A stretch of DNA of 64,000 bases from an uncultured bacterium (GCA_964590395.1 CAZPVT010000005.1:116387-180386); one strand, 5' to 3'; counted from the first letter of the stretch, positions 6,763 to 64,000 are shown. Numbers and translations are program-made. The notes: generated from the letters alone by a model not told the origin.

Positions 6763-8034
6763 TTATTCAACGAACCGAAACCCGCAGACGGTACAGAATT
6801 GTGCCCCGATTTCCCTTCTTGTGCCACATTGGGGGCAGGTGGCTCTGCCGGCAGCAATTTTTATCCTTATCGGCGTCCGGGTTTTGATTTTGGTACCTGG
6901 TTTCGGTTCCGAATTAATGGCATTACCGATGGCAATTTCGTCATTATACTCATTGATAAAAATTATGCTATCTAGTCCTTGTTCCCGCAAGATTTTAGTC
7001 ACCTCCAACTTCGGTAGATTGGTAATTGATGGCACCACGACCATACCCGTGCTTAACCTTACCTGCACCTTGGCACCCTTTTTTATCCTTTGGCCGGGTT
7101 TCGGGTTCTGTTCCACCACCTTACCCATTGTCGCGGTATCATCCTTGTCTGGACCAAGTCCATAAACAAAACCTGCTCGTTCTAAAGTTTGTTGAGCCTC
7201 AGTATAGTAAAGTCCGACGACATTGGGAGTGGGCTTTTTATTAAAACTTATCAACACAAACGTCACCGCCGCACCTAAAACACTCAAGATCACCGCTGTC
7301 AGCCAGATGCCGGTTTTTTTCCCCGTTTTCGCAGCAACTGCCACAGGTACTGCTGGAGTTTGGACGGGTGCAGTTTGAGCCCGGGTCGGTGCTGGCTTTG
7401 GTGGTGGCGGTTTGACCGGTGGTTGTTTAGGTGGTTCTTTTATCGGCTTCGGCTGAGCAGGGACCTGAACTGAAGATGGAGGGGGCGTGGGTTGTTTAGG
7501 CGGAGACTCTTTGGGTGTCGGTTTTGGTAACAGTTCGGTAAGTGCGGAACGGAACTCGCGGGCGTTCTGAAAGCGCTGAGCAGGGTCTTTAGCCAGCGCC
7601 CGCATAATGATCTGTTCCAGTTCCTTGGGGATGTCGGGCTTGAAGGTGCTGGGCTTGGGCGGTGGCTGGCTGATGTGCGCCTGAATCAATTCGGCGCCGA
7701 TTTCCGCATCAAATGGTGGACGGCCAGCAACTGCTTCGTAAAGGACAACACCGAGCGAATAGAGGTCAGCCCGGGCGTCGATATCCCGACGTTGCGCCCT
7801 TTCCGGCGCGATATAGCGCGCGGTGCTGATTTTCGAGATACCGTAGTCAGCGAGGCGCCATACCTTATCTTCCACCTGGATGATTTTTTTAGGTTTGATG
7901 TCGCCATGGAGTTTTCCTTGGTTGTGTGCCTGGTGCAGGTCATCAAGCACTGAAGAGAATATGTTGATCAGTTCGGGCAGGGGTAGGACCCGGCGCTCAC
8001 TCAGCAGATCCGCAAGCGTTAATTCCCGCGCCAT
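6763..8034 (-). CDS. Ser/Thr-kinase-like (C-lobe only) PASTA-domain membrane protein with a C-terminal zinc ribbon. Probably a pseudokinase.
   Basis: Begins at the kinase hinge/alphaD (LHQAHNQGKLHGDIKPKKI, DYG, APE, DxYSLG motifs). No Gly-loop or VAIK lysine. An in-frame stop lies 13 codons upstream of the ATG. Then a Pro-rich linker, a TM helix, two PASTA-like repeats, and CPQCG..CTVCG at the C-terminus. Confidence 0.7.
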   Translation of the reverse strand: MARELTLADLLSERRVLPLPELINIFSSVLDDLHQAHNQGKLHGDIKPKKIIQVEDKVWRLADYGISKISTARYIAPERAQRRDIDARADLYSLGVVLYEAVAGRPPFDAEIGAELIQAHISQPPPKPSTFKPDIPKELEQIIMRALAKDPAQRFQNAREFRSALTELLPKPTPKESPPKQPTPPPSSVQVPAQPKPIKEPPKQPPVKPPPPKPAPTRAQTAPVQTPAVPVAVAAKTGKKTGIWLTAVILSVLGAAVTFVLISFNKKPTPNVVGLYYTEAQQTLERAGFVYGLGPDKDDTATMGKVVEQNPKPGQRIKKGAKVQVRLSTGMVVVPSITNLPKLEVTKILREQGLDSIIFINEYNDEIAIGNAINSEPKPGTKIKTRTPIRIKIAAGRATCPQCGTRREIGAQFCTVCGFRFVE

Positions 8035-9815: not shown

Positions 9816-12800
9816 TCATTTATTCAACAGAAGTTCAAAATACGCCCGGATCAGTTTTTCATACTCAACCGGATAGCGCTGTTGCTGGAGGGCACGCAGG
9901 AGTTCGGACCGCAGTAGACGGTTTCTTTCCCCTTGGTCCTCGGGCAACTCGGGCGGATTTTCCAGACGGTAGGGACGTGCGGTTTCTGCCTGGCGTTCCT
10001 CTTTAAATCCCTGCTGACGGAGGCTGCGCTGGGCGTCAAGCAGGCGGGCGACGATGTCTTCCTGACGTTCAATCAGTTTGCGGTCAATTTGCAGTTCTGC
10101 CAGGCCTCTTTCCACCTGTCTCATCTCTTCCAGCATTCGGTCTAATGCACCGGTCAGACCGGGTCTTTCTCCACCCATCTGTTGCAGGAGTTGTTCCAGT
10201 TGCTGACGGAGTGCCTGCTGTTGAGAAAGTAGTCTGGATAACTGCGCCAGTTGCTGAGAGGTAAGACCGGTACTGGGAATTGGAATCGGCAAACTGGCAG
10301 TGCCGGCATTGATGCTCATCTGCTCGGATGCCATTTTCGCCAGTTGGTCAAGCAGGTTTTGCAACCCACCAGATAAACCACCTCCCTCCATTTTTGCTGC
10401 GGCACCGATTAACATTCCTGCGGCACGGTTCAGGCGCTGTCGTGCCTGGCGCATATTCTCTTTTGTACCACTGCCACTGCCCTCCATTGCCATTTTTGCG
10501 GCACTGCTCATCAGGTTGAGCGCATTGCCCAGTTCCTGATGGAGTGGCGGCGGGATTGCCAGTGTTCTGGTGCTCAGACTGGCGAGACTCTCCGCTGCCA
10601 TTTTGGTTGCTTCACCCAGCGCGGACTGTTCGTTGGCAATCTCCACCAGCCGGTCGCTGGTGGTCATTTTTTCCTCCAGTTTTTCCTGGTACTGAGAGAT
10701 GGTCAAGAGTTGATCAGCATTGGCAAGCAACTGTTTCATTACTTCCCGCGCGCGGTTTTTCTTTAACTGCTCACTCAGACATCGCAACCGATCGGCAAGT
10801 TGTCTAATGGATCCGGCGAGTTCTCGGGAGGGCAGTTGCGCGGACAATTTATCACCCGAGTTAAACAGTTGTTTTAAGGCGTCAGCCTGTTTCGGCAATT
10901 CCCGGATAGCCATCTCCTGGTTCAGTGCGGCGAGCGATTCGGTAAGTGCGGGTTCGGTGCATTGACGGGCAAGTTGCTCGATACCGTTCAAAAGACTGTC
11001 GAGATTGGTTTTTATCTCCTCCTGCTGTTGGATAAGTTGGGATTCATTTGCGGTTGGAATGTTGCCGGTTAGCTCATTTTGTTTTTGCGCCAGTTTTTCT
11101 GCCTGTCGTGCGAGTGCTTCCAGTTGGATCTCATCCATTATCCGTTTCAGGAGTTCTAAAGCGCGGTCAATGTCCGCCTTCAGGGCAGACTGCTGTTCCT
11201 GCAGACGTTCAAGTAGCGCTTTTAATTCATCGGGTCGGGCGGTCAGTTTACTACCCAGTTCGTTTAGTGCCTTCTGAAGTTCCTGCGGTAAAAGCCGAGA
11301 AAGCAGTTCCTGTAACTGGGACAGACGTTCCAGTGTTTCCTGATCCCAACTCATCCCTTGGAGCAGTTCCGCAGTGGTCTGGGCGACTTCGTTCTGCAGA
11401 CGGTCAATCTGGTTGAGCAGGTTTATCTGTTCATTCACGATCTGTTCCAGTTTTTTGCGTTCCTCCCAGCTGAGTTCCCGCTGTTTTTTTAACTCCTCAC
11501 TGATGCGCGCCAGCGCACTTCCGAGTTCTGCCTGTTCATTCTGGAGCGGTGCCAGTTGCTCCTGGGTGGTGGTGGTCTGGTTTACCGCCTGAGCGTAAAT
11601 CTGTTCCATACTGGGAAACCGCACCGTATAGATTTCACTGCGGGTACTTTTCGGACCGCTGATCGCATCATTGTCAACCACCCGCACAAAATACCGGACG
11701 GCTTCACCGGGCAGAAGGTTTGTTTTGCTCAGATCCCAGAGATAGAAGGTGGTGTCCTCCCGGTGGTTGTTGACCGTCTTCAGCCGGCGAGAGTTATTGA
11801 TGCTGTCCTTGCCGTAATGGAGCCAGATCTCGGTGATGCCAAAGTCGTCAATAGAGTTAATGCCCAGCGGAACCTGCATATTCATCGGCAGGTTGACATC
11901 ACGGCCGGGTAGAAACACTTTGACCAGTGGTGATTCATCCGGTATTGCCCGGATGTTGAATCGGTAAACCGTCTGCTGTCTATTTGGGAGCGTGGCGAGT
12001 TCAATTCTTGCCTCTCCATCCTGCCGGATGGTAAAACCGCCGCTGAGTTCTCCGGGTTGATCTCTGCTGAGCGCTAATGGCAGGGTCTCTGCTGGCAGAA
12101 TGAGAAAACCATTTTCCGCTGTGCCGGTAACTTGGGCGGTGAGATTTACCTTTGTTCCTTTCAGAAGTGCCAGATCACCGCCACTTTGACGGATGGGCTT
12201 CATTCCGGTATAAGCGGGTGGTGTGCAGTTAAAGGCAATGCTTTTAAGAGCCAGGGGCGCGATGATATTTACCCTATACCAGTCGGTTTTTTTGTTTAAA
12301 AGTCGGAACCGATAATAAAATGTTTCACCGGTGGTTAATGTAAAGATGCAGGAGTCAGCGGAAAGCCGGAGAGGGATTTTTTTTATCCGTGGTGAATTGG
12401 GGATGGCTGTTGTTTGCAACTGGATAGATTTGAATACGCCTGCAGGCTGGACTGAACAGACCAGTTTAGCAGTTTCGCCCGCAAGCAGGGTGGTATCACC
12501 AGGGACAACCTTTAGATAGATAGGCAGGTGGTCAGGTTTAAAAGCGTTCAGTAGACCAAATTTTACCCTTTCGCCTCCCTGGTTAAGCGTCAGGACAAGC
12601 AATACCAGCGCCAGAAGGCTAAAAACACCGGAAATCAGCAGGCGTCTGAAGGGCAGGATAAGTTTGAGCGGTAGCGGTCTTATCATTTCCTGCACCTGTT
12701 GAATTGCGGCATCGCGCAACTCCAGTGAGTAACCACGGCGATCAGGCTGGTAGTTTATCAGGTCCAGAGCAGAGACAACCTTTCCTTTTAACCCTGGGAA

Positions 12801-53171: not shown

Positions 53172-55335
53172 GGACAAGGGGTTCGCTCTTAGAGCGGTTA
53201 AACTGACAGGGGGATGGTTAACCATCCCCCTGTTGCTATTATCTGCCAGGGCTATAGGTGCTAAATGGACTGTGGGTATTTACATCGGCGCGGATAACGG
53301 AATGAGCGAACAGGCTTATGTTGACATTGCGGAGATGATGAAAGTTGGCTCAAGTAGCGAGGTCAATATCGTGGTGCAGGTTGATAATGCCAGCCGGGAC
53401 ACCAATCCGAACTGCCGGCGTTATTTAATCCTTAAAGATCAGCGGGAACTGCTTGCAGACCTTGGTGAACTGGATATGGCAGACACCGCGGTGCTTGCGG
53501 ATTTCATTGCGTTTCTGGGTAGAAATTTTCCTGCCCGTAACTACTTTCTTATCATCTGGGACCACGGCAACGGCTGGCGTGCAGGTTATGGTCCACAGCG
53601 GGCGGTGGTGATTGATGAGTCCCATAGTCATATGATGGGGGTGGCAGGTGGCGAGTTAAACCGGGCACTGGCAAACGGAGTTAAACGGCTGGGCAAGAAA
53701 CTGAAGATTTTAGGTTTTGATGCCTGTTTGATGGGGTGCATTGAGGTGGCAACTGAGGTGATGGACTACTGTGAATACCTCCTTGCCTCGGAGGCGATGG
53801 TGGAGTGGAATGGGTTACCCTATGATGCCATATTCAGAAGGTTAACCACCCAGCCTGACATACCGGTTGAACAGTTACTTTCCGGTATCTGTGAGGACTA
53901 TGTTAACGCATATCCGGACCGGGCGGTCTGTCTTTCGGCGATCAGCACCGCACAACTGAAACAGGTGATAAAAACCCTCTCTGTTGTGCTTAAAGACAGT
54001 ATTGGTTCAGATGATAGACGTGTTCAAACTGCCCGTCTTGGTGTGCAGACATTTCCGCAGGATCTGGTTAGCCAGCCCAAAGTCAACGATGAGATGATCG
54101 ATCTTATTCATTTCTGGCAGCTGGTAGGGGGTAATGGCACCGAGAAACTCTGTCAGGCTCTTGAAGGGTTGGTTGTGGCAAATGCGGTGGGGGGGGCGGA
54201 TTTTAACAATGCGCAGGGTCTTGCGGTCTGGTTTCCTTTTCGGTACCTTGGTTTCAAATCCAAGGCAAAGGAGTATCAGCAACTGGTTTTCTCAGACAGT
54301 GTGCCCTGGCTTAGTTTCTTAAACAACTATTTCGGTTTAGACGATGCCAAACCTGAAACACCCCGGATTATCAAACACCAGACCGGAAACCGGGGAGATG
54401 TCCGGCTCTGGTGGCACCGGGTTAAGGACTGGTCACCGGTTACCTACCATCTTTATCAGGCGACCGCGCCCGCATCGATTTTACAGGACCACTGCGACAG
54501 TTTTGCCTCTTGGCAGTCACAGGGCTGGGCCGTTTCAACCCGGTATAGCCGTTCACCCGGGAGTTCGTTTTTCTCGGGTTCAGCGAGCAACTTAACTCAC
54601 CTCCTGACACTAAAATCCGGAGTATCACTGCCTGCAGGTGGTTTGCTTGCCTTTTATGCCTATTACTCAACCCAGGAGACCGAAGACTCCTTGGGTAACA
54701 TTACCCGTGATGCCTGCTATATTGAAACCTCAACTGATCGCCAAAACTGGCAGATACTGGACTCAATTTACGGTTCTGGTGAATCCTGGCAGGAGTTTTC
54801 CTATCTTCTGGTTCCAGCCGAGAATGTTTATATCCGGTTCAGATACACCACCGACCAGACCATAAACCGGCTCGGTGTTTTTATTGACGACATCCGGATT
54901 GAACGGTTTTTGACCCTGCGCAAGGCGCTGGTTACCACCGACACCACATCCTACCTCTTCAACCTTGCCCGGGAGACCACCGGTTATTACTTTTTCCTTA
55001 TGGCGCAGGATGCATCTGGCAACTACTCCAATCTCAGCTCCTATTACCCGGTAAAGATCAAAACCCTTGCCGAACCCTACACCCGACCCGCGCCATTTTC
55101 CGGGCAATGTCAACTTATCCTGGACTTTCCGGCAGGTGAAACTCCGGATGTCTACATCTACACATTGAGCGGCGCCCTGGTCAAAAAATTCTCAAAGGTC
55201 ACTAACCGGATGATTGACTGGGACGGCAAAAACGAATATGGTAGAGACCTGGCTGATGGGGTCTATTTAGTTTTAGTCCGGGGTAAAAACTTCAAAAAAA
55301 TCGGCAAAATCGCCCGGGTGGGGGTAAAAGGATAA
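53161..55335 (+). CDS. Clostripain-family (C11) cysteine peptidase with a T9SS C-terminal sorting domain
   Basis: IYIGADNG..., IIWDHGNGW (His) and GFDACLMG (Cys) catalytic-dyad motifs. C-terminal CTD (DVYIYTLSGALV...DGVYLVLV...KIGKIARV). Confidence 0.7.
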   Translation: MAFKDKGFALRAVKLTGGWLTIPLLLLSARAIGAKWTVGIYIGADNGMSEQAYVDIAEMMKVGSSSEVNIVVQVDNASRDTNPNCRRYLILKDQRELLADLGELDMADTAVLADFIAFLGRNFPARNYFLIIWDHGNGWRAGYGPQRAVVIDESHSHMMGVAGGELNRALANGVKRLGKKLKILGFDACLMGCIEVATEVMDYCEYLLASEAMVEWNGLPYDAIFRRLTTQPDIPVEQLLSGICEDYVNAYPDRAVCLSAISTAQLKQVIKTLSVVLKDSIGSDDRRVQTARLGVQTFPQDLVSQPKVNDEMIDLIHFWQLVGGNGTEKLCQALEGLVVANAVGGADFNNAQGLAVWFPFRYLGFKSKAKEYQQLVFSDSVPWLSFLNNYFGLDDAKPETPRIIKHQTGNRGDVRLWWHRVKDWSPVTYHLYQATAPASILQDHCDSFASWQSQGWAVSTRYSRSPGSSFFSGSASNLTHLLTLKSGVSLPAGGLLAFYAYYSTQETEDSLGNITRDACYIETSTDRQNWQILDSIYGSGESWQEFSYLLVPAENVYIRFRYTTDQTINRLGVFIDDIRIERFLTLRKALVTTDTTSYLFNLARETTGYYFFLMAQDASGNYSNLSSYYPVKIKTLAEPYTRPAPFSGQCQLILDFPAGETPDVYIYTLSGALVKKFSKVTNRMIDWDGKNEYGRDLADGVYLVLVRGKNFKKIGKIARVGVKG

Positions 55336-55406
55336 AGGCCTCTAATTCCTCGGGAAGTCTGCTGAATAATCACAATCAACTACTTAGTTGTGTAACTAAT
55401 ATATAA

Positions 55407-56672
55407 CTATGCTTCTGCCGCACATAAAAATTGAATTACATCGGCTAGATATTCAACTTTATTTTTCCCGGGCGGTAATAACCTGTTTTCAAATATATAA
55501 ATATATTTGTCAAGCAAGTAATTTACAATTGTAGTGAGTTCAACTTCTCCGCACTCCGAATTTATTACGGAATCGTACATTAGTCTTAAACTTTTATCTT
55601 CTTTCAATAAGCCTAAAAAACTTATGGTGAAATTCTTTTTATATTTAAGTAACATACTCCTTTCGTCAATAGTTATTAGTTGAGATAACCAAATATCATC
55701 GTATTTCAATAAAAGCAAATCGGATACTGAAAAACTTTTCCTAAAAAGCTTTAATGTAATATCGTTACCGTATAACGCTCCTACTCTTACTATTAATTTA
55801 GAATAAGACAAACCGATCTCCATTTGTAAGTTCTCGGTGTCTTTACTAATTATTTTCATTGTTGGACTTTGTTCTATTATATTTTGTAGGTATTCAAAGC
55901 CTTCCCGGCTTGAAGAGTAAAATCCGTTGGTTTTATCGCCTTGAATTGTCGCGGGATTGTCACCTGTATCAAACAAAACACCGATATATATTTCAAAGTT
56001 TTTAATTCCAAACTTCTCAAGTAATTCTGTTAGAGAAAATTCCTCATGGTTTCTTCTGAATAATTTTATATTGGAGTTAAAATACTCTACGAAAATTCCA
56101 AATTTTTCCGATGTCCAGATTTCTCGTCTGCCAGCAGCCCCGCCGGTATCTACTCTATTTTTAAGTTCAACTAATACAATCGTTTTTTCGTCTTGTATAA
56201 TACTTCCTACATCAGTGGTTACATCCTTGTTACCTAACCAATCCCATTCAATCGTCCTTAAGATTTTCTTTTCTGTGGAGGACAACCCTTGCTGAGTAAA
56301 AATACCCTTCTTCTTGTGGATAGATGGGTATGTTAACCAAAATGGAAGTTTGCTAAGTTCTATATCCAGAGAACAATTTTCAAAGGAGGAGGCTATTTTC
56401 TTTTCAATATACCTTCCACGACCACCCTGACTGTGATGATAATAAGATGTAACACCTAGTAAAGCTTCGTAATATTCTTTGATTTCAGGTGGAGCACTTA
56501 ATAGTCCATCGTAAACTTTGGCTACCGGATCAAAATCCTTTGCATTAATATTCATACAAAGCTCTTTGAAATTTATTAATATGTTTTTATAAGGTTCATA
56601 AAGTAATATTTGTCCAAGATCTAATTTCCCTTTTTCTTTTATACACAGAAGGTTTTTCTTTTTAATAATCAC
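55407..56672 (-). CDS. Hypothetical protein (candidate restriction endonuclease partner of the upstream methyltransferase)
   Basis: 421-aa ORF in ~33% GC DNA. Its start lies 1 nt after the MTase stop. Possible PD-(D/E)xK-like IIQDEK..LVELK segment (weak). Confidence 0.4.
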   Translation of the reverse strand: MIIKKKNLLCIKEKGKLDLGQILLYEPYKNILINFKELCMNINAKDFDPVAKVYDGLLSAPPEIKEYYEALLGVTSYYHHSQGGRGRYIEKKIASSFENCSLDIELSKLPFWLTYPSIHKKKGIFTQQGLSSTEKKILRTIEWDWLGNKDVTTDVGSIIQDEKTIVLVELKNRVDTGGAAGRREIWTSEKFGIFVEYFNSNIKLFRRNHEEFSLTELLEKFGIKNFEIYIGVLFDTGDNPATIQGDKTNGFYSSSREGFEYLQNIIEQSPTMKIISKDTENLQMEIGLSYSKLIVRVGALYGNDITLKLFRKSFSVSDLLLLKYDDIWLSQLITIDERSMLLKYKKNFTISFLGLLKEDKSLRLMYDSVINSECGEVELTTIVNYLLDKYIYIFENRLLPPGKNKVEYLADVIQFLCAAEA

Positions 56673-56673
56673 A

Positions 56674-58005
56674 TTATTTCACTTTCTCGCAAATTATTAT
56701 ACTTTCTCCTCTGATTGCTCTATTCCGAGCACCTAATAGGGGATTAAATATCAATCTTTCAAATTTAAATCCCACTTCTTCACAAAACCTTTTAGTTGTC
56801 AAGGTAGTGGGAATTTTTTTCCCATTTACGGTACTGTCTCCAATTATAATAGCCAGCTTGCCGCCAGGCTTTAATGCCCAGAAGATATTTTTTATTAATT
56901 CTTTCAAGTCTTCATAATACATCGCTACTTTTGGAGGCAGTCCTTTATAAGATATTTCTGATTTCCCATTTTTCATACCCAGATATCTTGACTCGATTTT
57001 TTTCATATCTATGCCCAAATAGTCATAAGCAATTTTGTCTTTCCCAACATAATCTATAGAAAAATAGTAAGGCGGACTTGTAATGCAGGCGTCAAATTTC
57101 CCATCGAACTCCCTCATTTTCTTGAGTTCAAGGACATCGCCTTCAATGATTTTGGCAGGTTTAAAGTTAAGGCGATATTTTTCTTTTATTTCTATCGTTT
57201 TTTTTGAACATTGTTTTATATAGTTTAATTTTTCAATAAAGAGCCCCAATTTTCCTTTTCTATTATACCTTGAAGTTCTCATAAAGGCATCGACTGTATC
57301 AAAATATACTGCGAGCATTAATTTTTGAATTAATGGATCGGGGCATCCCCAGTTTTTATTTTCTATGGCTTGTAAGATATCTTGGAGTTCTTGTTGAGTA
57401 AAATTCAACTTTTGTTCATCGATAAAAAGCAAATCGTTTTTTAATTCTGATAGAACAATTCCCATCGGGGTAACATCTATGCCAGTACTTTTGATTCCCA
57501 TAAGGGAGGCTTCGTGTGTAGTCGTTCCTGAGCCGTTAAAGGGGTCTAAAAGGAGAGAATCGCTGTTTAATTTAAAGGTATTAATTAAAGTCCTAACTAC
57601 TCGTGGATAGAATTTGCCTTTATATGGATATAGATTATGAAACGCATAGGCATTCGTGTCACCAAATTTATCAACAAAATCTGTGTAAAGAGTTTTTTCC
57701 CCTTTTACTATTTCTAGGTGCGCTACTCTTAACCTTATAAATTCTTCATCGCCCTTAAATCTAACCGTTCGGTTTATTGGGTCAATTTTATATTCTTCAG
57801 TTAACCCACGCAGTTCTAAATCCAAAAGTTCCAGATCTGCAAGGGTTTGCATCCAGAAGCCAAATATTGTGTCACCTTTTTGGGCGACATAGTTTGCAAA
57901 TTCTTGGGAGTAAGCCTCGATTATCTCTTGATAAGACGGAAATTCGTAGGTACCAAACATCGTCATTTGTTTTCCCTGTTTTAATGCTCGAACGTCTTTA
58001 CTCAT
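56674..58005 (-). CDS. DNA amino-methyltransferase (N6-adenine or N4-cytosine), type II R-M-like
   Basis: Motif I LLDPFNGSGTT, then, after a TRD-sized gap, motif IV ITSPPYY. AT-rich. Confidence 0.75.
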   Translation of the reverse strand: MSKDVRALKQGKQMTMFGTYEFPSYQEIIEAYSQEFANYVAQKGDTIFGFWMQTLADLELLDLELRGLTEEYKIDPINRTVRFKGDEEFIRLRVAHLEIVKGEKTLYTDFVDKFGDTNAYAFHNLYPYKGKFYPRVVRTLINTFKLNSDSLLLDPFNGSGTTTHEASLMGIKSTGIDVTPMGIVLSELKNDLLFIDEQKLNFTQQELQDILQAIENKNWGCPDPLIQKLMLAVYFDTVDAFMRTSRYNRKGKLGLFIEKLNYIKQCSKKTIEIKEKYRLNFKPAKIIEGDVLELKKMREFDGKFDACITSPPYYFSIDYVGKDKIAYDYLGIDMKKIESRYLGMKNGKSEISYKGLPPKVAMYYEDLKELIKNIFWALKPGGKLAIIIGDSTVNGKKIPTTLTTKRFCEEVGFKFERLIFNPLLGARNRAIRGESIIICEKVK

Positions 58006-58094
58006 TTATAAACTTTCCCCGATTGAGCATATATAGATTAATTTGAGATAAACAGTTGATTCGACGAGAGAGTAAGATCAATAACATTATCTAA

Positions 58095-58215
58095 AATTTA
58101 TAGTTGCACCCCTCCAAGTCAACTTTTTACCGGCGAGTGTTGCGGTTCCGGCACTGCCAGGCGCCGGTATCGGGGATAGGTTTTTTGAAACAGACCAGAG
58201 GGCAATTTGGGCATA
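58095..58215. repeat. Copy 2 of a triplicated palindrome + promoter-like element
   Basis: CCTCCAAGTCAA...CCGGCActgccaggcGCCGG-TATCGGGGATAGGTTTTTTGAAA. Shares the 5' part and core with 62995-63125. ~90 nt upstream of the MTase start. Confidence 0.6.
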
Positions 58216-58734
58216 TGAACTGGCAATGATATTTTCCACATCATTAGTCCCGCTTAGTCCTTTTTTCTCTCTGCTCTTTTATACCATTAATTATCCAGAT
58301 GGTTAGAGCGATAATTATGCAAATAATTACGAAAGCCACAACCAGATAGTAAACTGTAAGTGTTATTAATGGCAGTGTCGCTTAAACTAATATTGCCACC
58401 GGCAGAAGAATAAGTATCGCTAATACTTTAGCAACCAAACGAACTTGATGCTTGTTTCGAAACTTCCATAGTCCAATGGCAGTAAAAATACTAATGATAG
58501 CAATACTTAATAGGCTAATTAACATCCAGGCCTTTATACCTTCGCCATATATAAGCGAGATAAACAGGAGATATAGTGGTATTATTGTCTCCAGTATTAA
58601 AAGCCTAATTATATTACGAATTGATGCCAGCTCTTTCTTAATATTATATACCGCCTTTTATGCTATTTCCGATAACGTCTTGCGGATAAAAGAATTTGCC
58701 GAAGGTAATGTTGGGCGAAGCCTCTTATCCGCTG

Positions 58735-59664
58735 TTAGGCGGAGGAGCACTCTCTTTCCCAGCTTTCCTGTATCGGGCGATAAATTTCTTCTATTCTTTC
58801 CTTCGTTAGCAAATTTTCTTTTATTATAACCTCATATACATGAACCTGAAAATCGCTCCACCTAATCGGATGAGCAATTTGGCGTCTTGGTGTAAGCTCT
58901 TTTAACTCATAGTCTTTTAGTTCCAACCCTTTGGATAAAAATGCTTTTAAGTCCTCTGTGTCAAAATGAATTTCGTTATCAGCAATTAAATACCTTGTAT
59001 TTAGAACCGAAAAGTAGGGATAAATATTTGTAACACTTTTCCTATTTCCACCCTTGCCACATCCTTCTCGCACTTTCACCATATAAGCGACATTTATTCC
59101 GTGTCTAAGAAGAACCTCTTGAAAGAAGTTTATATTTTCAAATAGAAAATAAATCACAGGTTTTTCAATCTTTCCCAACTTGTTTGAGGTTATCTCAATG
59201 TCTAATAAATAAATTTCCGGAGTTTTTGGAGCCTCTTCTTTATCAACAACAGATTCCTCATTAACTTCATATTTTACTAAAGAAGCGTCGATACATAAAG
59301 GATAAATCTTTTTCGCTACTACATTTGTTTTGCCGTCGTTAAACACTTCGCCTTTCTTCAGTTTTACCATTTTTTTATTATAATCTGTATGTATAAAAAG
59401 ATCCGGGGCAGGAATTCCATAGTCTGTTACAATATTGATATTACCCCTGATACCCCTGATATTATTTTCATCTATCTCGGACAATTCCAAAATGTCGCGA
59501 TAGTCATTACCAGCACTTGGATACCATAAGATTTCTGGATTATCGCCGACTGTGCTAAATAAATCGTTGAGTCGTTTTTGTGACGCTTGATTTCTCGCTT
59601 TTAATAGTTGTTTAATAGATCTTACTTCCTTATAGCCTTTCTTCGGATCTTTTCTTGTTGACAT
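58735..59664 (-). CDS. Hypothetical protein (309 aa), AT-rich, flanked by copies of the repeated element
   Basis: Long ORF in low-GC DNA. No recognisable motifs. Confidence 0.4.
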   Translation of the reverse strand: MSTRKDPKKGYKEVRSIKQLLKARNQASQKRLNDLFSTVGDNPEILWYPSAGNDYRDILELSEIDENNIRGIRGNINIVTDYGIPAPDLFIHTDYNKKMVKLKKGEVFNDGKTNVVAKKIYPLCIDASLVKYEVNEESVVDKEEAPKTPEIYLLDIEITSNKLGKIEKPVIYFLFENINFFQEVLLRHGINVAYMVKVREGCGKGGNRKSVTNIYPYFSVLNTRYLIADNEIHFDTEDLKAFLSKGLELKDYELKELTPRRQIAHPIRWSDFQVHVYEVIIKENLLTKERIEEIYRPIQESWERECSSA

Positions 59665-59780
59665 ATTACCTCCTTGTTTTAGAGCGATTTTTTATCTTTT
59701 GTGTGCGGTCAAGGTCCAATAAGGACATCGATAAAATTCATAACAATAACAATAAATCTGTCGAGGTCAAGTTTTTTCTT

Positions 59781-59885
59781 GCAGTTTGTTTTCATCCGGC
59801 AGTGTTAGGTGCCGGTAGCGGGGATAGGTCTTTTCAAATAGTTGGAGAATAGTCCGGGCAAGTTCTGGGTAGGGGACAGGTAAGG
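59781..59885. repeat. Copy 3 of the triplicated element
   Basis: CCGGCAgtgttaggTGCCGG-TAGCGGGGATAGGTCTTTTCAAATAGTTGGAGAATAGTCCGGGCAAGTTC. Shares the core and 3' part with 63040-63110. Confidence 0.6.
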
Positions 59886-60088
59886 GACGGTTTTAAATTC
59901 CAAGGATTATCTGCAGGGGTTCTGTTTTACGCTTTCTTTTTTAAACCTGTGAGAGTTAAATTCTTTTGTTTAAAGGTGTCCAAGAGGTCACCTCGACAGG
60001 TTATCTATATCTATTTTCCCCTCATATTTGCCGGCAAGGATTCAAAAGAAATTTCGTCAATGATGTTTGAGGATAAGTTCGGACATAA

Positions 60089-61579
60089 TTAAGTTAACAT
60101 TAAAAACTTTAATGGGACCTTTATAATAGAGTCATTTATTAATTCCAGTCTGCCACTTCCCAGGACTAATCCATATTTACTTTTGACTTTTCTCATCGTA
60201 TTTTCAACTTGCCTGATTTCCTCTTTATTAAAACCAAGTTCAATGACGACATTGCTCCTGTTCTTCAGGGTTAAAACAAAATCTGCGCCGCACTCGGCAA
60301 TATCATAAGACAGACTGTAAGCCAACGCTTTCTTTAAATCATTCTCAAAAATTAAGGTAAAATAATCTTCCAGTTTTTTGCCTTCGATGCCCGGGGGGAA
60401 ACTGTTGTCTAAAATGGCACCGCGAAGAGACGGGGTTATAAAGAGATACTTTGGAGTTTTTCTGGTGGTGCCATAAGTTCTACCGTAAGCCTTTACCTTA
60501 ATTAAAACACCACTCATAACTAAAACATCCAGCAGGGCTGATAATGTTCTGATATTATCAATTTTTAAGGTCTTTAATAGTTTTTCATAACTGATCAGAT
60601 CAGAGTTAGCCAGCAGGTAAAGCAGGTCGTTGATTTTGCTGATCGTTTCGGTCTTAAACCTTTTCAGGGTTAAAATGTCTTTCGTAATTATTCCGTTGAT
60701 CACATACTTTATCCGTTCTGCGATTTCAACCTGGTTTTGCAAGCCAACCACAAATGGAAATCCGCCGTTTTTGAAGAATTCATCTTCGCAACCGGGTGAT
60801 AAACTCAAAAAAAATCTTTTCACTGCTGATTCTTTATCTTTAAGTTCGTTAAAAACCTCTTTGGCATTCCGGGAGTTGAAAATGATTTCCTTCAGTTCTT
60901 CTGATAGATTTTCAACAGGATAAATATTATGTTTTAAGATTAGATATTCGCTGAATTTCATCGGGAAAAGTTCTTTTACTGTTGCTCTTCTCATTAAATC
61001 TGCGCCTATTTTTATGTTAATTGCTGAAGAACCGGTGGCGATGACCAGTAAATTTTTATGCCCCTTGGTATGGTCAAACAACACTTTTAAAAACAGATTC
61101 CATTTTTCATCAAAGTGGACCTCATCAAGTAAAAGGATGATCTTTTTATCTAAAGTTACAAAATTGAAATTGTTTACCTTCTCGAAAAATTGAAAGAATT
61201 CACTTAAACCGATCTGTTCAAAATGAAACTTGCTGATATCAAAATAAAAACGATAATCAAGTTTGTTTAAATTTTTTAGTAACTCTGCATCCTCAGGATT
61301 ATCGGGATTTAAAAACTTTTCGAGTTTATAAATCTGCATCAACAGAGTTGTTTTACCCACCCCTCTGATGCCGGGTAATAGAATAATTTTTTCAAACTCG
61401 TTTATTTTATCAGTGAGAAACTCGTTTATTTTCTTTTTGAAAAAGGAGAAAATGTGTCTTGTTGGCTTGAGATTTTTATTGTCATCGTAAAGATACCCTT
61501 CGTTTAATTGGGGAAGGATTTTAAGCCAGTTCTTATAAAAATTTTCCAATTTTTCCTCGTTCATCAGTCGGTATTCCAT
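60089..61579 (-). CDS. AAA-family ATPase (AAA_14 + DUF4143-type)
   Basis: Walker A GIRGVGKTT. Walker B ILLLDEVHF. Winged-helix-like C-terminal region. 496 aa. AT-rich. Confidence 0.7.
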   Translation of the reverse strand: MEYRLMNEEKLENFYKNWLKILPQLNEGYLYDDNKNLKPTRHIFSFFKKKINEFLTDKINEFEKIILLPGIRGVGKTTLLMQIYKLEKFLNPDNPEDAELLKNLNKLDYRFYFDISKFHFEQIGLSEFFQFFEKVNNFNFVTLDKKIILLLDEVHFDEKWNLFLKVLFDHTKGHKNLLVIATGSSAINIKIGADLMRRATVKELFPMKFSEYLILKHNIYPVENLSEELKEIIFNSRNAKEVFNELKDKESAVKRFFLSLSPGCEDEFFKNGGFPFVVGLQNQVEIAERIKYVINGIITKDILTLKRFKTETISKINDLLYLLANSDLISYEKLLKTLKIDNIRTLSALLDVLVMSGVLIKVKAYGRTYGTTRKTPKYLFITPSLRGAILDNSFPPGIEGKKLEDYFTLIFENDLKKALAYSLSYDIAECGADFVLTLKNRSNVVIELGFNKEEIRQVENTMRKVKSKYGLVLGSGRLELINDSIIKVPLKFLMLT

Positions 61580-61987
61580 TACAAACTAAACACGCATTCA
61601 GATTGTATCACAATACAAACTGAATGTCAAATAAAGACCCTCTTGTCACCTCTGGTGGTGTAAATAGCAACTGGTTAAAAACAGATAACCCTGGATGAGT
61701 ATTTTGGATAACCATCGTCGCCCGATTTGTCAAAATGCGCCAAATACATAATTTCACCACCAGATTAAAGGTTTTATTATTTTATAATTCACCTCCTTTA
61801 AATTGACCTTTTCGATATCTTTTGCTTTGCTATCTTCGCATTGCTTAAGTTTAAGGCATTTAAAGAAACCACCTCCACCATCAATTATGGCACCGACAAA
61901 TAGAGCATCTAACACGTTATAAAAATTTTCTTCTTATAATTATGATAATAAGTCCCCCTTAAATTCAATCTTTTATCGGCAGGTTTT

Positions 61988-62980
61988 TTATTGGGTTTCG
62001 TGCTGTTCGAAGTATTCAAAGGCGTCGATCAGGTCAAGGTAGATGCCGTCAAAGCCAGCAGTAAGGATTTTTTTGACATAGGAGTTGTCGTTGCCGTAGA
62101 TGATCTTTTGCCATTGCGGGTCCCAGTATTTTACTCGATAGTTGCCGGGCCAGTCCGGGTTTTGTTCAAGGAGCCAGTCGGGCGGGTTTTGTTGCCATTC
62201 AGGACGCCAGTAGTAGCGGTAGTCCTCGGCTTCGCCGATACTGAGGTAGGACAGGATTAGCCGTCTGCCACCGTTTGCCTTGGTTTTTAAGCGGGCAATT
62301 TCGTCCGCGGTTAAAGGGAGTGTGTCATAAAACAGATCGATGATCAGGAGGTCGTAGTTGGTTGCGCTGAGAGCGTTCAGGAAGGCGGTTTTGTCCCTGA
62401 AGGCACCGTGGTTAATCAGACAGAGGAAGTTCTGTGCCTGTTTTAGGGTGGTGATGTCGCTGGCGTTGACCCGGTGGGGTTCGGGGGGATAAGCGGGTAT
62501 GTTGTCCAGTTCCCGGTGGTCAGCCACAAAGGAGATGTAGCCGTGGCGGGTGTTCTGAAGATTGGAGTTGTCAACAAAGGTGCGGGTTGAGCAGTAGTCA
62601 ATGACCAGCACCTCAATGCCGCAACTTTCCGCAAGGTTTAGAAATGGGATAATCCGGTTGCGGACTGATTCCGGCGTTGGGATGTTGTCTCCATCGTATC
62701 CGTAGAATAGGTCCTCTCTGCCCAGTCCGTGAATCGCTTTAATGTAGGCAATTGCCGGTGTGCCGGTATCCGTTCCATCGATTGTGAGCAGTTCCTGGCC
62801 ATTCTGGGGGATGATGAGGAAATCGGGGTTTATTTTTTGGGTGTAGGCGCTGATTTTCTGGACAAACTGGCGCATATCTTCGCGGCAGTCCCTTTGGTTT
62901 GGTTGGAGATGCTGACACCCTGGGGACATTAAGGCGGTTAATGTCAGCGGGATCGTAATTAGAAGGAGGTTTATTTTCAT
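61988..62980 (-). CDS. GH114-like (endo-alpha-1,4-polygalactosaminidase-type) TIM-barrel glycoside hydrolase, secreted lipoprotein
   Basis: Lipoprotein signal (LMSPGC). GFDGIYLDLID motif typical of GH114/PelA-like hydrolases. Confidence 0.5.
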   Translation of the reverse strand: MKINLLLITIPLTLTALMSPGCQHLQPNQRDCREDMRQFVQKISAYTQKINPDFLIIPQNGQELLTIDGTDTGTPAIAYIKAIHGLGREDLFYGYDGDNIPTPESVRNRIIPFLNLAESCGIEVLVIDYCSTRTFVDNSNLQNTRHGYISFVADHRELDNIPAYPPEPHRVNASDITTLKQAQNFLCLINHGAFRDKTAFLNALSATNYDLLIIDLFYDTLPLTADEIARLKTKANGGRRLILSYLSIGEAEDYRYYWRPEWQQNPPDWLLEQNPDWPGNYRVKYWDPQWQKIIYGNDNSYVKKILTAGFDGIYLDLIDAFEYFEQHETQ

Positions 62981-62994
62981 AACCAGTTTTGTAA

Positions 62995-63125
62995 CTTAAT
63001 ACTCCTCCAAGTCAAGCTTTGTTCTCGGGCTGTGCTTTGTCCGGCACTGCCATATGCCGGTATCGGGGATAGGTTTTTTCAAAGAGTTGGAGGATGGTGC
63101 GGGCAAGTTCCGGATAGGGGGCAGT
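62995..63125. repeat. Copy 1 (most complete) of the triplicated element; it overlaps the 3' end of the HTH gene
   Basis: CTCCTCCAAGTCAAG...CCGGCActgccataTGCCGG-TATCGGGGATAGGTTTTTTCAAAGAGTTGGAGGATGGTGCGGGCAAGTTCCGG. Confidence 0.6.
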
Positions 63126-64000
63126 TGAAAGGAGGCGGTTTAACTCCGGTTTTTGTTTTTCCGGGTCAGATTCAAGTTGTAAGGCGGTATTGGTTAGTTG
63201 ATGGAGAAGTTCAATTGCCCAGAGTCTTATCTGTGGGTCAAGGTTTTCGGTTTTTAGTTCCCGGTTGATCTCTCCGAAGATCACCGCGGCGGTGCCGGCA
63301 ATCCGTTTTTTCTTTTCAGTTTCTGCCCGGTGTTTTTCCAGTATCAGCCTTTTTTCTGCCCGGATAGGTGCGGGTAAGGGGCGGTTTTTTAGTTCCGAGA
63401 TTATCCAGAGGAGGTCCTGGTCCGGGTTGAGGAGTCCCTGTTTTTCAATCTCTGCGTAAAGGTTTTTGATCTCCTGTTCAATTGTCTCGATGCCGGCTGA
63501 AGGCAGGTTGAGTTCTTTTATTCGGTCGCGCTGTTTTAGGAGGAGTCGGGTGCGGCGGTTCTGGTCGTCGCGGGTGGAGAGGTAGGTTTGGAAGATTTTT
63601 CTGCCGTAGTGGCAGAGTTGGGTGAGTTTTTCCTGGTCAATCTGTTCTGCCTCAGGTGCGGTGATTATCCGGTAAAGGGTGTCTTCAAGGATGGTGCGGA
63701 GGATGCGGTTCTGGAGGAGTTGTTTTATGCGGCCAGGTCGCCGGTTTAAACTCTTTTTGGGCAGGGTTTCGGTTGGTTGTGTAAGATCCGGAGGAGTTTC
63801 GGTTTTCGGGGTGATGGTGGCAGAGCGGTTTAAGAGCTCAATTATTTCGTTGAAGGTGGCATTGCACGCGGTGAGGTAGTTGGTAATGGTGATGATTGAT
63901 GGGTTTTTGATTTTACCGGTTTCAAGGCGGTGAAGCAAAACATAGTATCCCGGTGCCTCGGGCGTAATTTTTTGTGCCAGTTGTTTTAATGTGAGGTTTG
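63012..64000 (-). CDS. Helix-turn-helix-domain protein, 5'-truncated by the window edge
   Basis: The N-terminal region (LKQLAQKI....LLHRLETGKIKNPSIITITNYLTACN) resembles an XRE-type HTH. The ORF stays open to position 64000. Confidence 0.4.
   Translation of the reverse strand, partial: NLTLKQLAQKITPEAPGYYVLLHRLETGKIKNPSIITITNYLTACNATFNEIIELLNRSATITPKTETPPDLTQPTETLPKKSLNRRPGRIKQLLQNRILRTILEDTLYRIITAPEAEQIDQEKLTQLCHYGRKIFQTYLSTRDDQNRRTRLLLKQRDRIKELNLPSAGIETIEQEIKNLYAEIEKQGLLNPDQDLLWIISELKNRPLPAPIRAEKRLILEKHRAETEKKKRIAGTAAVIFGEINRELKTENLDPQIRLWAIELLHQLTNTALQLESDPEKQKPELNRLLSTAPYPELARTILQLFEKTYPRYRHMAVPDKAQPENKA

Follow-up and report, generated by a model that had tools for sequence, protein, structure and literature searches.

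A 64,000-nucleotide (nt) stretch of DNA from an uncultured bacterium (GCA_964590395.1 CAZPVT010000005.1:116387-180386, called the window here) contains an AT-rich island at ~55.3 to 61.95 kb, which lies within a somewhat longer variable region extending from 55,336 to ~63,110. We conclude, with a probability of about 0.72, that this region is a hotspot located between the 3′ end of a helix-turn-helix (HTH) gene and the stop codon of a C11 peptidase gene, in which foreign cassettes have been stacked one after another, with a two-gene type II restriction-modification (R-M) module as the functional core. The region consists of at least three independently acquired cassettes and is neither a single island nor a single system. 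The AT-rich part holds four genes, which encode an AAA_14 ATPase, a protein of the DUF7663 family, a DNA methyltransferase (methylase), and a 421-amino-acid (421-aa) methylase partner that is probably a restriction endonuclease. The evidence for stacking comes from base composition, comparison with relatives, displaced copies of the HTH gene end, and the behavior of the individual genes in other genomes.

RESULTS

The island is foreign in composition and absent from a close relative

Measured in 500-nt steps, the guanine-plus-cytosine (GC) fraction is 0.31 to 0.40 over positions ~55,300 to 61,950 and 0.44 to 0.55 on either side. In 1-kb steps it averages 0.354 within the island (maximum, 0.385), compared with 0.493 in the rest of the 64-kb window (standard deviation, 0.022; minimum, 0.416), which places the island ~6 standard deviations below its surroundings; in a second count by 1-kb bins, none outside the island was lower than 0.449. 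The GC at third codon positions (GC3) is 0.29 to 0.39 in the four island genes, whose overall GC fractions are alike at 0.33 to 0.35, versus 0.54 to 0.65 in the flanking genes. GC falls no more than ~70 nt from the stop codon of C11 (55,335) and recovers at that of a GH114-family gene (61,988). All four island genes are minus-strand open reading frames (ORFs) that run toward the C11 peptidase gene, itself on the plus strand; a boundary spacer of 71 nt (55,336 to 55,406; GC, 0.35) separates the converging stop codons of the C11 and 421-aa genes. An earlier, sequence-only reading of the window had proposed a horizontally acquired AT-rich island with sharp edges and with every gene convergent with the flank. 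The composition proved far from uniform on recalculation, the edges are as abrupt as claimed, and the orientation of all four ORFs was confirmed.

Comparison with related genomes, which that reading had recommended, gave a direct view of the same locus without the island genes. In the closest relative, L016 (GCA_053497075.1), the HTH protein is 91% identical and the same neighbors are present on both sides, with flanks of 87% and 95% nt identity; on the C11 side, the nucleotide homology (87%) stops at position 55,332 of the window. The distance from the HTH stop codon to the C11 stop codon is 1.09 kb in L016, whereas the HTH-to-C11 interval in the window is 7.7 kb, and the L016 interval lacks the GH114, ATPase, DUF7663, methylase, and 421-aa genes. 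Since the L016 interval is short and its flanks match, the region in the window is an insertion, and this insertion includes the GH114 gene. The other informative relative, L017 (a 57% relative), has, immediately after its HTH gene, two ORFs for N6_N4 methylases plus a 285-aa ORF without an assignment. The presence of other methylase genes at the same site in L017 implies that the site is a hotspot. When the genome collection was scanned with the C11 peptidase, the sole match was a partial one, at 36%. Horizontal acquisition, as proposed earlier, is thus upheld by the composition, by the absence of the genes from L016, and by the occurrence of the methylase/421-aa module, at a constant low GC, in unrelated bacteria and an archaeon (see below).

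The L016 interval itself contains an AT-rich ORF (11,163 to 11,890; GC, 0.35 to 0.41) that stop codons and frameshifts interrupt. Its N-terminal part is winged-helix-like, and a PD-ExK-like motif (WGTPDV...SAEIK) is also present; when the frames were joined by hand, the product had no significant Pfam match. Judging from the motif, this ORF may be a decayed nuclease cassette.

Displaced copies of the HTH gene end lie between the cassettes

The element repeated in the region derives from the upstream HTH gene, whose 3′ end it copies; it occurs three times on the minus strand (copies A, B, and C). Copy A (63,012 to 63,110) is the present 3′ end of the HTH gene, ~30 codons with a TTGACT box, and lies 5′ of the GH114 gene, outside the AT-rich part. 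Copy B (~59,760 to 59,880) lies 5′ of the DUF7663 gene and appears to be a displaced ancestral HTH 3′ end. Taken with the sequence that follows it (59,632 to 59,878; the promoter-like sequence TTGACC-16-TATTGT, a leader, a ribosome-binding site, and 11 codons from the start of the DUF7663 gene), copy B is 90% identical to positions 10,951 to 11,197 of L016, and its translation reads ...FEKTYPRYRHLTLPDENKLQEKN, compared with ...RHLAVPDENKLQEKT in L016. Copy C (58,100 to 58,210), which is decayed and contains a CCGGCA..TGCCGG inverted repeat, lies 5′ of the methylase gene; a −35-like box, TTGACT, closes the copy, with TAAATT following after 16 nt, and the copy is 91% identical to the L016 core. 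The spacers between the units, 0.4 to 0.7 kb long, contain these displaced host gene ends, and copies B and C have a host-like GC (0.47 and 0.54, respectively) inside an island of 0.35. Promoter-like hexamers occur at the distal ends of both.

The same history is visible in the HTH gene. Between the window and L016 it is 96 to 98% identical at the nucleotide level, dropping to 0.84 to 0.64 in the last ~30 codons (tail A), and it is copy B, deep inside the region, that matches the L016 tail. Furthermore, the L016 interval opens with a B-type tail, and it shares with the DUF7663 cassette what comes next: leader, ribosome-binding site, and 11 initial codons. The 3′ end of the HTH gene is the insertion site. 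The earlier claim that a repeat copy precedes each transcription unit holds for the methylase and DUF7663 units but not for the AAA gene, which has no copy, and the third copy precedes the GH114 gene beyond the AT-rich part.

Orthologs with 57% protein identity agree at 94% of a 52-nt core of the repeat, with identical third positions in 10 of 11 codons. DNA-level selection on this core was considered and dropped, as other 15-codon segments of the HTH gene reach 12 of 13 identical third positions (overall, 0.59). The hairpin in the core has a stem of only 6 bp, with weak folding (z, −1.0 to −2.7) and no covariation, and an exact-pattern scan of metagenome contigs for the core returned 0 matches.

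The methylase and the 421-aa gene form a mobile two-gene module

The methylase (443 aa; 56,674 to 58,005, minus strand) matched the Pfam family N6_N4_Mtase (PF01555; 1.8e-11, above the curated cutoff), PADLOC MTase_II (2.4e-33), and a PHROG DNA methyltransferase family (1.7e-35). Motif I (DPFNGSGTT, residues 154 to 162) comes before motif IV (SPPY, residues 310 to 313), with ~150 aa between them; the SPPY form would point to m4C as the product. It is because of the Pfam and PADLOC matches that we read this protein as an R-M methylase. A single nucleotide separates its TAA stop codon from the GTG start codon of the 421-aa gene (55,407 to 56,672, minus strand), in agreement with the coupling of the two genes noted in the sequence-only reading.

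A homolog of the 421-aa gene lay directly 3′ of a homologous methylase in three of three unrelated genomes, one of them archaeal, and the archaeal pair was found in a defense island, next to a HinfI-type R-M system, TIR proteins, and an integrase. Linkage was seen in all 80 metagenome loci, with the methylase upstream on the same strand in 79 of the 80 and almost always no more than 41 nt away; in two loci (L038 and L050), one gene stood in between. The GC of the module was 0.30 to 0.35 whatever the GC of the flanks (0.23 to 0.48). The methylase and 421-aa genes are therefore a tightly linked mobile module of two genes, and the linkage, the spread, and the constant GC are the behavior expected of a type II R-M unit. 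Among plasmids in the collection searched, relatives of the methylase and the ATPase were distant only (at most 30 to 35% identity), and there were no relatives of the 421-aa or DUF7663 protein; viral contigs held essentially no relatives, apart from one fragment of a 421-aa protein and two DUF7663 proteins at 27% identity.

The gene that intervenes in two of the metagenome loci (L050, 2316 to 3974; L038, 4 to 810) encodes a 552-aa protein with a DGQQR motif. Read by eye, it resembles DUF262 proteins, with an HNH-like C terminus, as in the GmrSD-like type IV restriction family. If this reading is true, the R-M module itself hosts another defense gene.

The 421-aa protein is a probable restriction nuclease

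Homologs of the 421-aa protein numbered 353, and the top 120, at 69 to 81% identity, are distributed over Elusimicrobia, Firestonebacteria, Edwardsbacteria, Thermodesulfovibrionales, and an archaeon of the Methanofastidiosa. When 1.84 billion representatives were searched exhaustively, no more than ~110 clusters at 50% identity emerged, and the family is undescribed in the libraries that we searched (Pfam, NCBIfam, PADLOC, PHROGs, and PDB).

Close homologs all share three residues, D154, E169, and K171 (TDVG...VLVELKNR); in a more diverse set, which reaches down to 22% identity, K171 still shows no variation and D154 is more than 90% conserved. The corresponding codons lie in the regions 56,202 to 56,216 (D154) and 56,139 to 56,171 (E169-x-K171). 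In an AlphaFold2 (AF2) model, D154, E169, and K171 are placed on consecutive strands, a predicted β-hairpin between helices. This predicted order of strands and helices around D154...ExK is as expected for a PD-(D/E)xK core, in a model of low confidence. A possible nucleotidyltransferase motif (G..D-x-E, with D103) was rejected, D103 being replaced by N or A in many homologs.

Mainly from the linkage and the motif, we regard the 421-aa protein as probably a restriction nuclease, and we hold this view with fairly good confidence. Of the type II R-M-like pair in the sequence-only reading, then, the methylase half stands on its motifs and family matches; the nuclease half draws on strict linkage and the D...ExK signature, with no match to a family or fold. 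A PADLOC search of all four proteins, also recommended there, identified the methylase (MTase_II) and the ATPase (PDC-S01) and returned nothing for the 421-aa protein.

The DUF7663 gene stands alone

The 309-aa protein (58,735 to 59,664, minus strand), which had been called unknown, is a clear member of Pfam family DUF7663 (PF24699), with an E value of 1.4e-53, 182 bits against a cutoff of 27, and 211 of 225 model positions covered. The searched literature library contained no mention of DUF7663. A diverse alignment yielded a confident structure model (predicted local distance difference test [pLDDT] score, 91; predicted template modeling [pTM] score, 0.90), in which the protein has a Rossmann-type fold with weak resemblance to class I S-adenosylmethionine (SAM) methyltransferases. 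The model puts an invariant WYPS(A/S)GxD after β-1 and HTD94 after β-2, where class I methyltransferases bind SAM; the canonical GxGxG is absent, and a β-rich insertion (residues 113 to 173) is atypical for this class. Our leading guess, a tentative one that we would not back at even odds, is that DUF7663 could be a divergent SAM- or nucleotide-binding enzyme.

Homologs of DUF7663 stand alone in variable neighborhoods, without the other island genes. One adjoins an integrase, a type III-like R-M system, and ParE. No conserved partner gene was found downstream of the homologs. Two short, very hydrophobic putative ORFs of 31 and 47 aa lie between the DUF7663 gene and repeat copy C (58,244 to 58,525, minus strand); they had no significant family match and no counterpart 3′ of other DUF7663 genes. 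On a Ratteibacteria-like contig (L014), two diverged DUF7663 genes (715 to 1623 and 7001 to 7882) lie 5 kb apart around an AAA_13/AAA_23 ATPase gene, an arrangement suggestive of an accumulation of DUF7663 genes in variable regions.

The ATPase, GH114, and HTH genes

The ATPase (496 aa; 60,089 to 61,579, minus strand) matched AAA_14 (PF13173; 3.2e-21) and four PADLOC PDC-S01 models (1.2e-22 to 9e-10). It has a Walker A motif, GIRGVGKT, at residues 70 to 77 and a Walker B motif, LLLDEV, at residues 149 to 154. Of the AAA/DUF4143 assignment made from the sequence, the AAA_14 part is well supported; DUF4143 (PF13635) gave no match even at an E value of ≤1, although the PDC-S01 models align with residues 135 to 393, so that a divergent version is possible. 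The gene has a strong promoter-like site of its own, TTGACA-17-TACAAT with a TG, at 61,630 to 61,602. The 408-nt AT-rich spacer 5′ of it (61,580 to 61,987) contains a 16-nt inverted repeat (61,651 to 61,666 and 61,749 to 61,764; 88% complementary) and had no Rfam match; the Rfam scan found only four tRNAs, all distant from the island.

The GH114-family glycoside hydrolase gene (61,988 to 62,980, minus strand; PF03537, 4e-14) has a host-like GC of 0.52. In public assemblies its start is placed at 62,875, which gives a protein of 295 aa. By comparison with L016, where it is absent, this gene belongs to the inserted region, and the variable region accordingly extends to ~63,110. The defense island of the earlier reading survives as a variable/defense island with an R-M module; as one island or system it does not, being made up of several cassettes.

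The conserved XRE-type HTH gene (63,012 to 64,000, minus strand) starts beyond the end of the window; its full length of 353 aa was taken from contig L010 (5592 to 6653). The ORF lister reported 308 aa with a TTG start, compared with 353 to 354 aa in public gene calls. The protein has a weak HTH_31 match (4e-4). Only three homologs, at 91%, 57%, and 48% identity, were found among 5.8 billion proteins, and the gene is for this reason considered lineage specific.

In the host-like sequence of the window (1 to 55,335 plus 61,988 to 64,000), 4-base palindromes are strongly depleted relative to the Markov expectation (CATG, 0.24; CTAG, 0.24; GGCC, 0.30; AGCT, 0.38). This is compatible with past exposure to 4-bp-cutting restriction systems; we draw no link to the island methylase.

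DISCUSSION

How the cassettes may have been stacked

Along the minus strand, the proposed order is the HTH gene with tail A, the GH114 gene, the AAA_14 ATPase gene, an old tail (B), the DUF7663 gene, an older tail (C), the methylase gene, the 421-aa gene, and the C11 gene. We infer that each newcomer at the HTH end would have brought a replacement HTH 3′ end, shifting the previous end downstream. A displaced end with its −35 box would then sit 5′ of the older cassette, where it is placed to act as a promoter. The AAA gene would have come in separately, with its own promoter, because GC switches at the GH114 stop codon. Once established, the methylase would protect host DNA, and the coupled 421-aa protein, most likely a PD-(D/E)xK nuclease (D154, E169, and K171), would cut unmodified incoming DNA. 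DUF7663 and the ATPase are independent accessory genes outside the R-M system, with a possible role in defense suggested only by association or by candidate status.

A number of observations weigh against this account. No recombinase or integrase family was found among the ORFs scanned with profiles (the four island genes, the GH114 and HTH genes, and the two short ORFs), and a crude tblastn search with two integrases found nothing in the window, the rest of which lay outside the profile scan. Insertion may have been site specific, in trans, or homology assisted. Repeat copies are lacking both at the C11 end and beside the AAA gene, and serial site-specific insertion in its simple form thus leaves part of the evidence unexplained. 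Promoter matches are not enriched over shuffled sequence (22 observed versus 22.5 expected). The GH114 gene is host-like in GC and may have been there ancestrally, with a loss in L016, and the informative relatives are two only. The identity of the 421-aa protein adds to this list. It had no match in Pfam, NCBIfam, PADLOC, PHROG, or PDB sequences, and PDB profile searches plus Pfam and PADLOC scans of family members found nothing. Its structure model is poor (pLDDT, 62; below 50 in the loop after ExK), because only close homologs could go into the alignment. A Foldseek search with this model gave nothing significant (best E value, 0.18), and the top folds were those of nucleotidyltransferases, not nucleases.

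Alternative explanations

The four AT-rich genes might be one multigene defense system that arrived in a single acquisition, for they are contiguous, lie on the same strand, and share a low GC of 0.33 to 0.35. Yet homologs of DUF7663 and AAA_14 were absent from all 85 other loci (0.5 Mb in total) at which the methylase pair occurs, DUF7663 homologs occur without the other three genes, and the 0.4- to 0.7-kb spacers hold displaced host gene ends of host-like GC; we consider a single system very improbable. Hardly more plausible is an ancestral, AT-rich, fast-evolving region that L016 lost by deletion, with no acquisition hotspot at all. Such a loss would fit the single close relative without the region and the host-like GC of GH114, and the leader and first 11 codons that L016 shares with the DUF7663 cassette could be a deletion scar. 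It is difficult to reconcile with the GC3 contrast to the flanks, with a methylase pair that is 70 to 81% identical to copies in other phyla and an archaeon and has the same GC everywhere, with the different genes that L017 carries at the site, and with three diverged gene-end copies, which indicate repeated insertions. An assembly chimera, in which an AT-rich block was wrongly joined to the genome, could account for the abrupt change in composition at both ends. Our contig lookup found seven contigs carrying the DUF7663 protein, and those displayed, which come from three samples (JGI 3300010308, SRR5216256, and SRR10519663), have an identical gene order; a 181-kb JGI contig and a 13.5-kb Logan contig span both junctions at 99.98 to 100% identity. 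Recovery of the same order and junctions from independent samples makes a chimera very unlikely, and we give it the least credence of all.

For the 421-aa protein, the alternative is that it is not a restriction nuclease but a nucleotidyltransferase-like effector, a specificity or regulatory subunit, or part of some other two-gene system. The lack of a nuclease family or fold match in any search speaks for this, as do the best, nonsignificant Foldseek folds (OAS, GLD-2, Pol beta, and RelA-SpoT-like nucleotidyltransferases) and further strongly conserved blocks outside the classic nuclease motif (KNRVDTGGxAxRRE and YDD325-326). However, those matches have E values of ≥0.18 and probabilities of ≤0.25 and derive from a low-confidence model, the candidate nucleotidyltransferase residue D103 is often substituted, D154, E169, and K171 are kept throughout the family and fall in the expected β-strands, and universal tight coupling to a DNA methylase is a hallmark of type II R-M. 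A nonnuclease is thus unlikely, though it deserves more weight than any alternative for the region as a whole. A more adventurous extension of cassette stacking is somewhat less likely still: the HTH 3′ end would be a recombinase-independent or trans-acting capture site with a portable promoter, integron-like with no integrase; DUF7663, with its methyltransferase-like but divergent fold, would be a new stand-alone enzyme of defense or nucleic acid modification; and the 421-aa protein would be the founder of a new family of restriction nucleases.

Significance and relation to known systems

Serial stacking at the HTH gene end does not overturn current understanding, and the region is an ordinary, typical horizontally acquired bacterial variable/defense island; the stacking architecture and the uncharacterized candidate nuclease family are the parts that merit attention. 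The former is a clean example of cassettes accumulating at one gene end with a displaced copy between each, which should be useful for annotating defense hotspots in poorly studied phyla. The latter adds an undescribed partner family, represented in uncultivated bacteria and archaea, to the type II R-M catalog and, if confirmed, could be a new restriction specificity. The analysis also supplies the first structural and contextual clues for DUF7663, the island member adding to the Pfam family a modeled, fold-level resemblance to class I SAM methyltransferases.

The methylase module resembles type II R-M systems that have a separate N6/N4 amino-methyltransferase and a PD-(D/E)xK endonuclease. 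It shares with them two coupled genes on the same strand, FxGxG and SPPY in the methylase, a D-x14-ExK signature in the partner, and transfer across phyla as a module with its own composition. It differs in its partner, which fits none of the nuclease families described in the libraries searched and for which the fold search gave no significant match. The ATPase is like the PADLOC PDC-S01 proteins, AAA_14/DUF4143-type ATPases that form a candidate single-gene defense family, in its AAA_14 domain, its Walker motifs, and its matches to four of the models, and differs from them in that the DUF4143 Pfam domain was not detected. To our knowledge, PDC-S01 is a candidate only, with no known defense activity.

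As for the region, defense islands and variable hotspots between conserved core genes are known from the pan-genomes of Escherichia coli and Pseudomonas. The present locus is like them in its fixed flanks (HTH and C11), in its foreign composition, and in a cargo that differs from relative to relative and is rich in R-M and defense candidates; it is unlike them in that no integrase or transposase was found here and in that displaced HTH 3′ ends with promoter-like boxes lie between the cassettes. An integrative element would likewise be foreign in composition and absent from a close relative, but no integrase was present among the scanned ORFs. An integron was rejected, there being no integrase among the scanned ORFs and the repeats being coding 3′ ends with only a weakly folding 6-bp inverted repeat. 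Tandem accretion at the 3′ end of a target gene, with duplication of att sites as at tRNA genes, differs from the present case in that the target here is the protein-coding HTH gene, no recombinase was found, there is no distal repeat, and the AAA cassette has no flanking copies. What the two have in common is an apparent new 3′ end with each insertion and a series of diverged direct repeats left behind.

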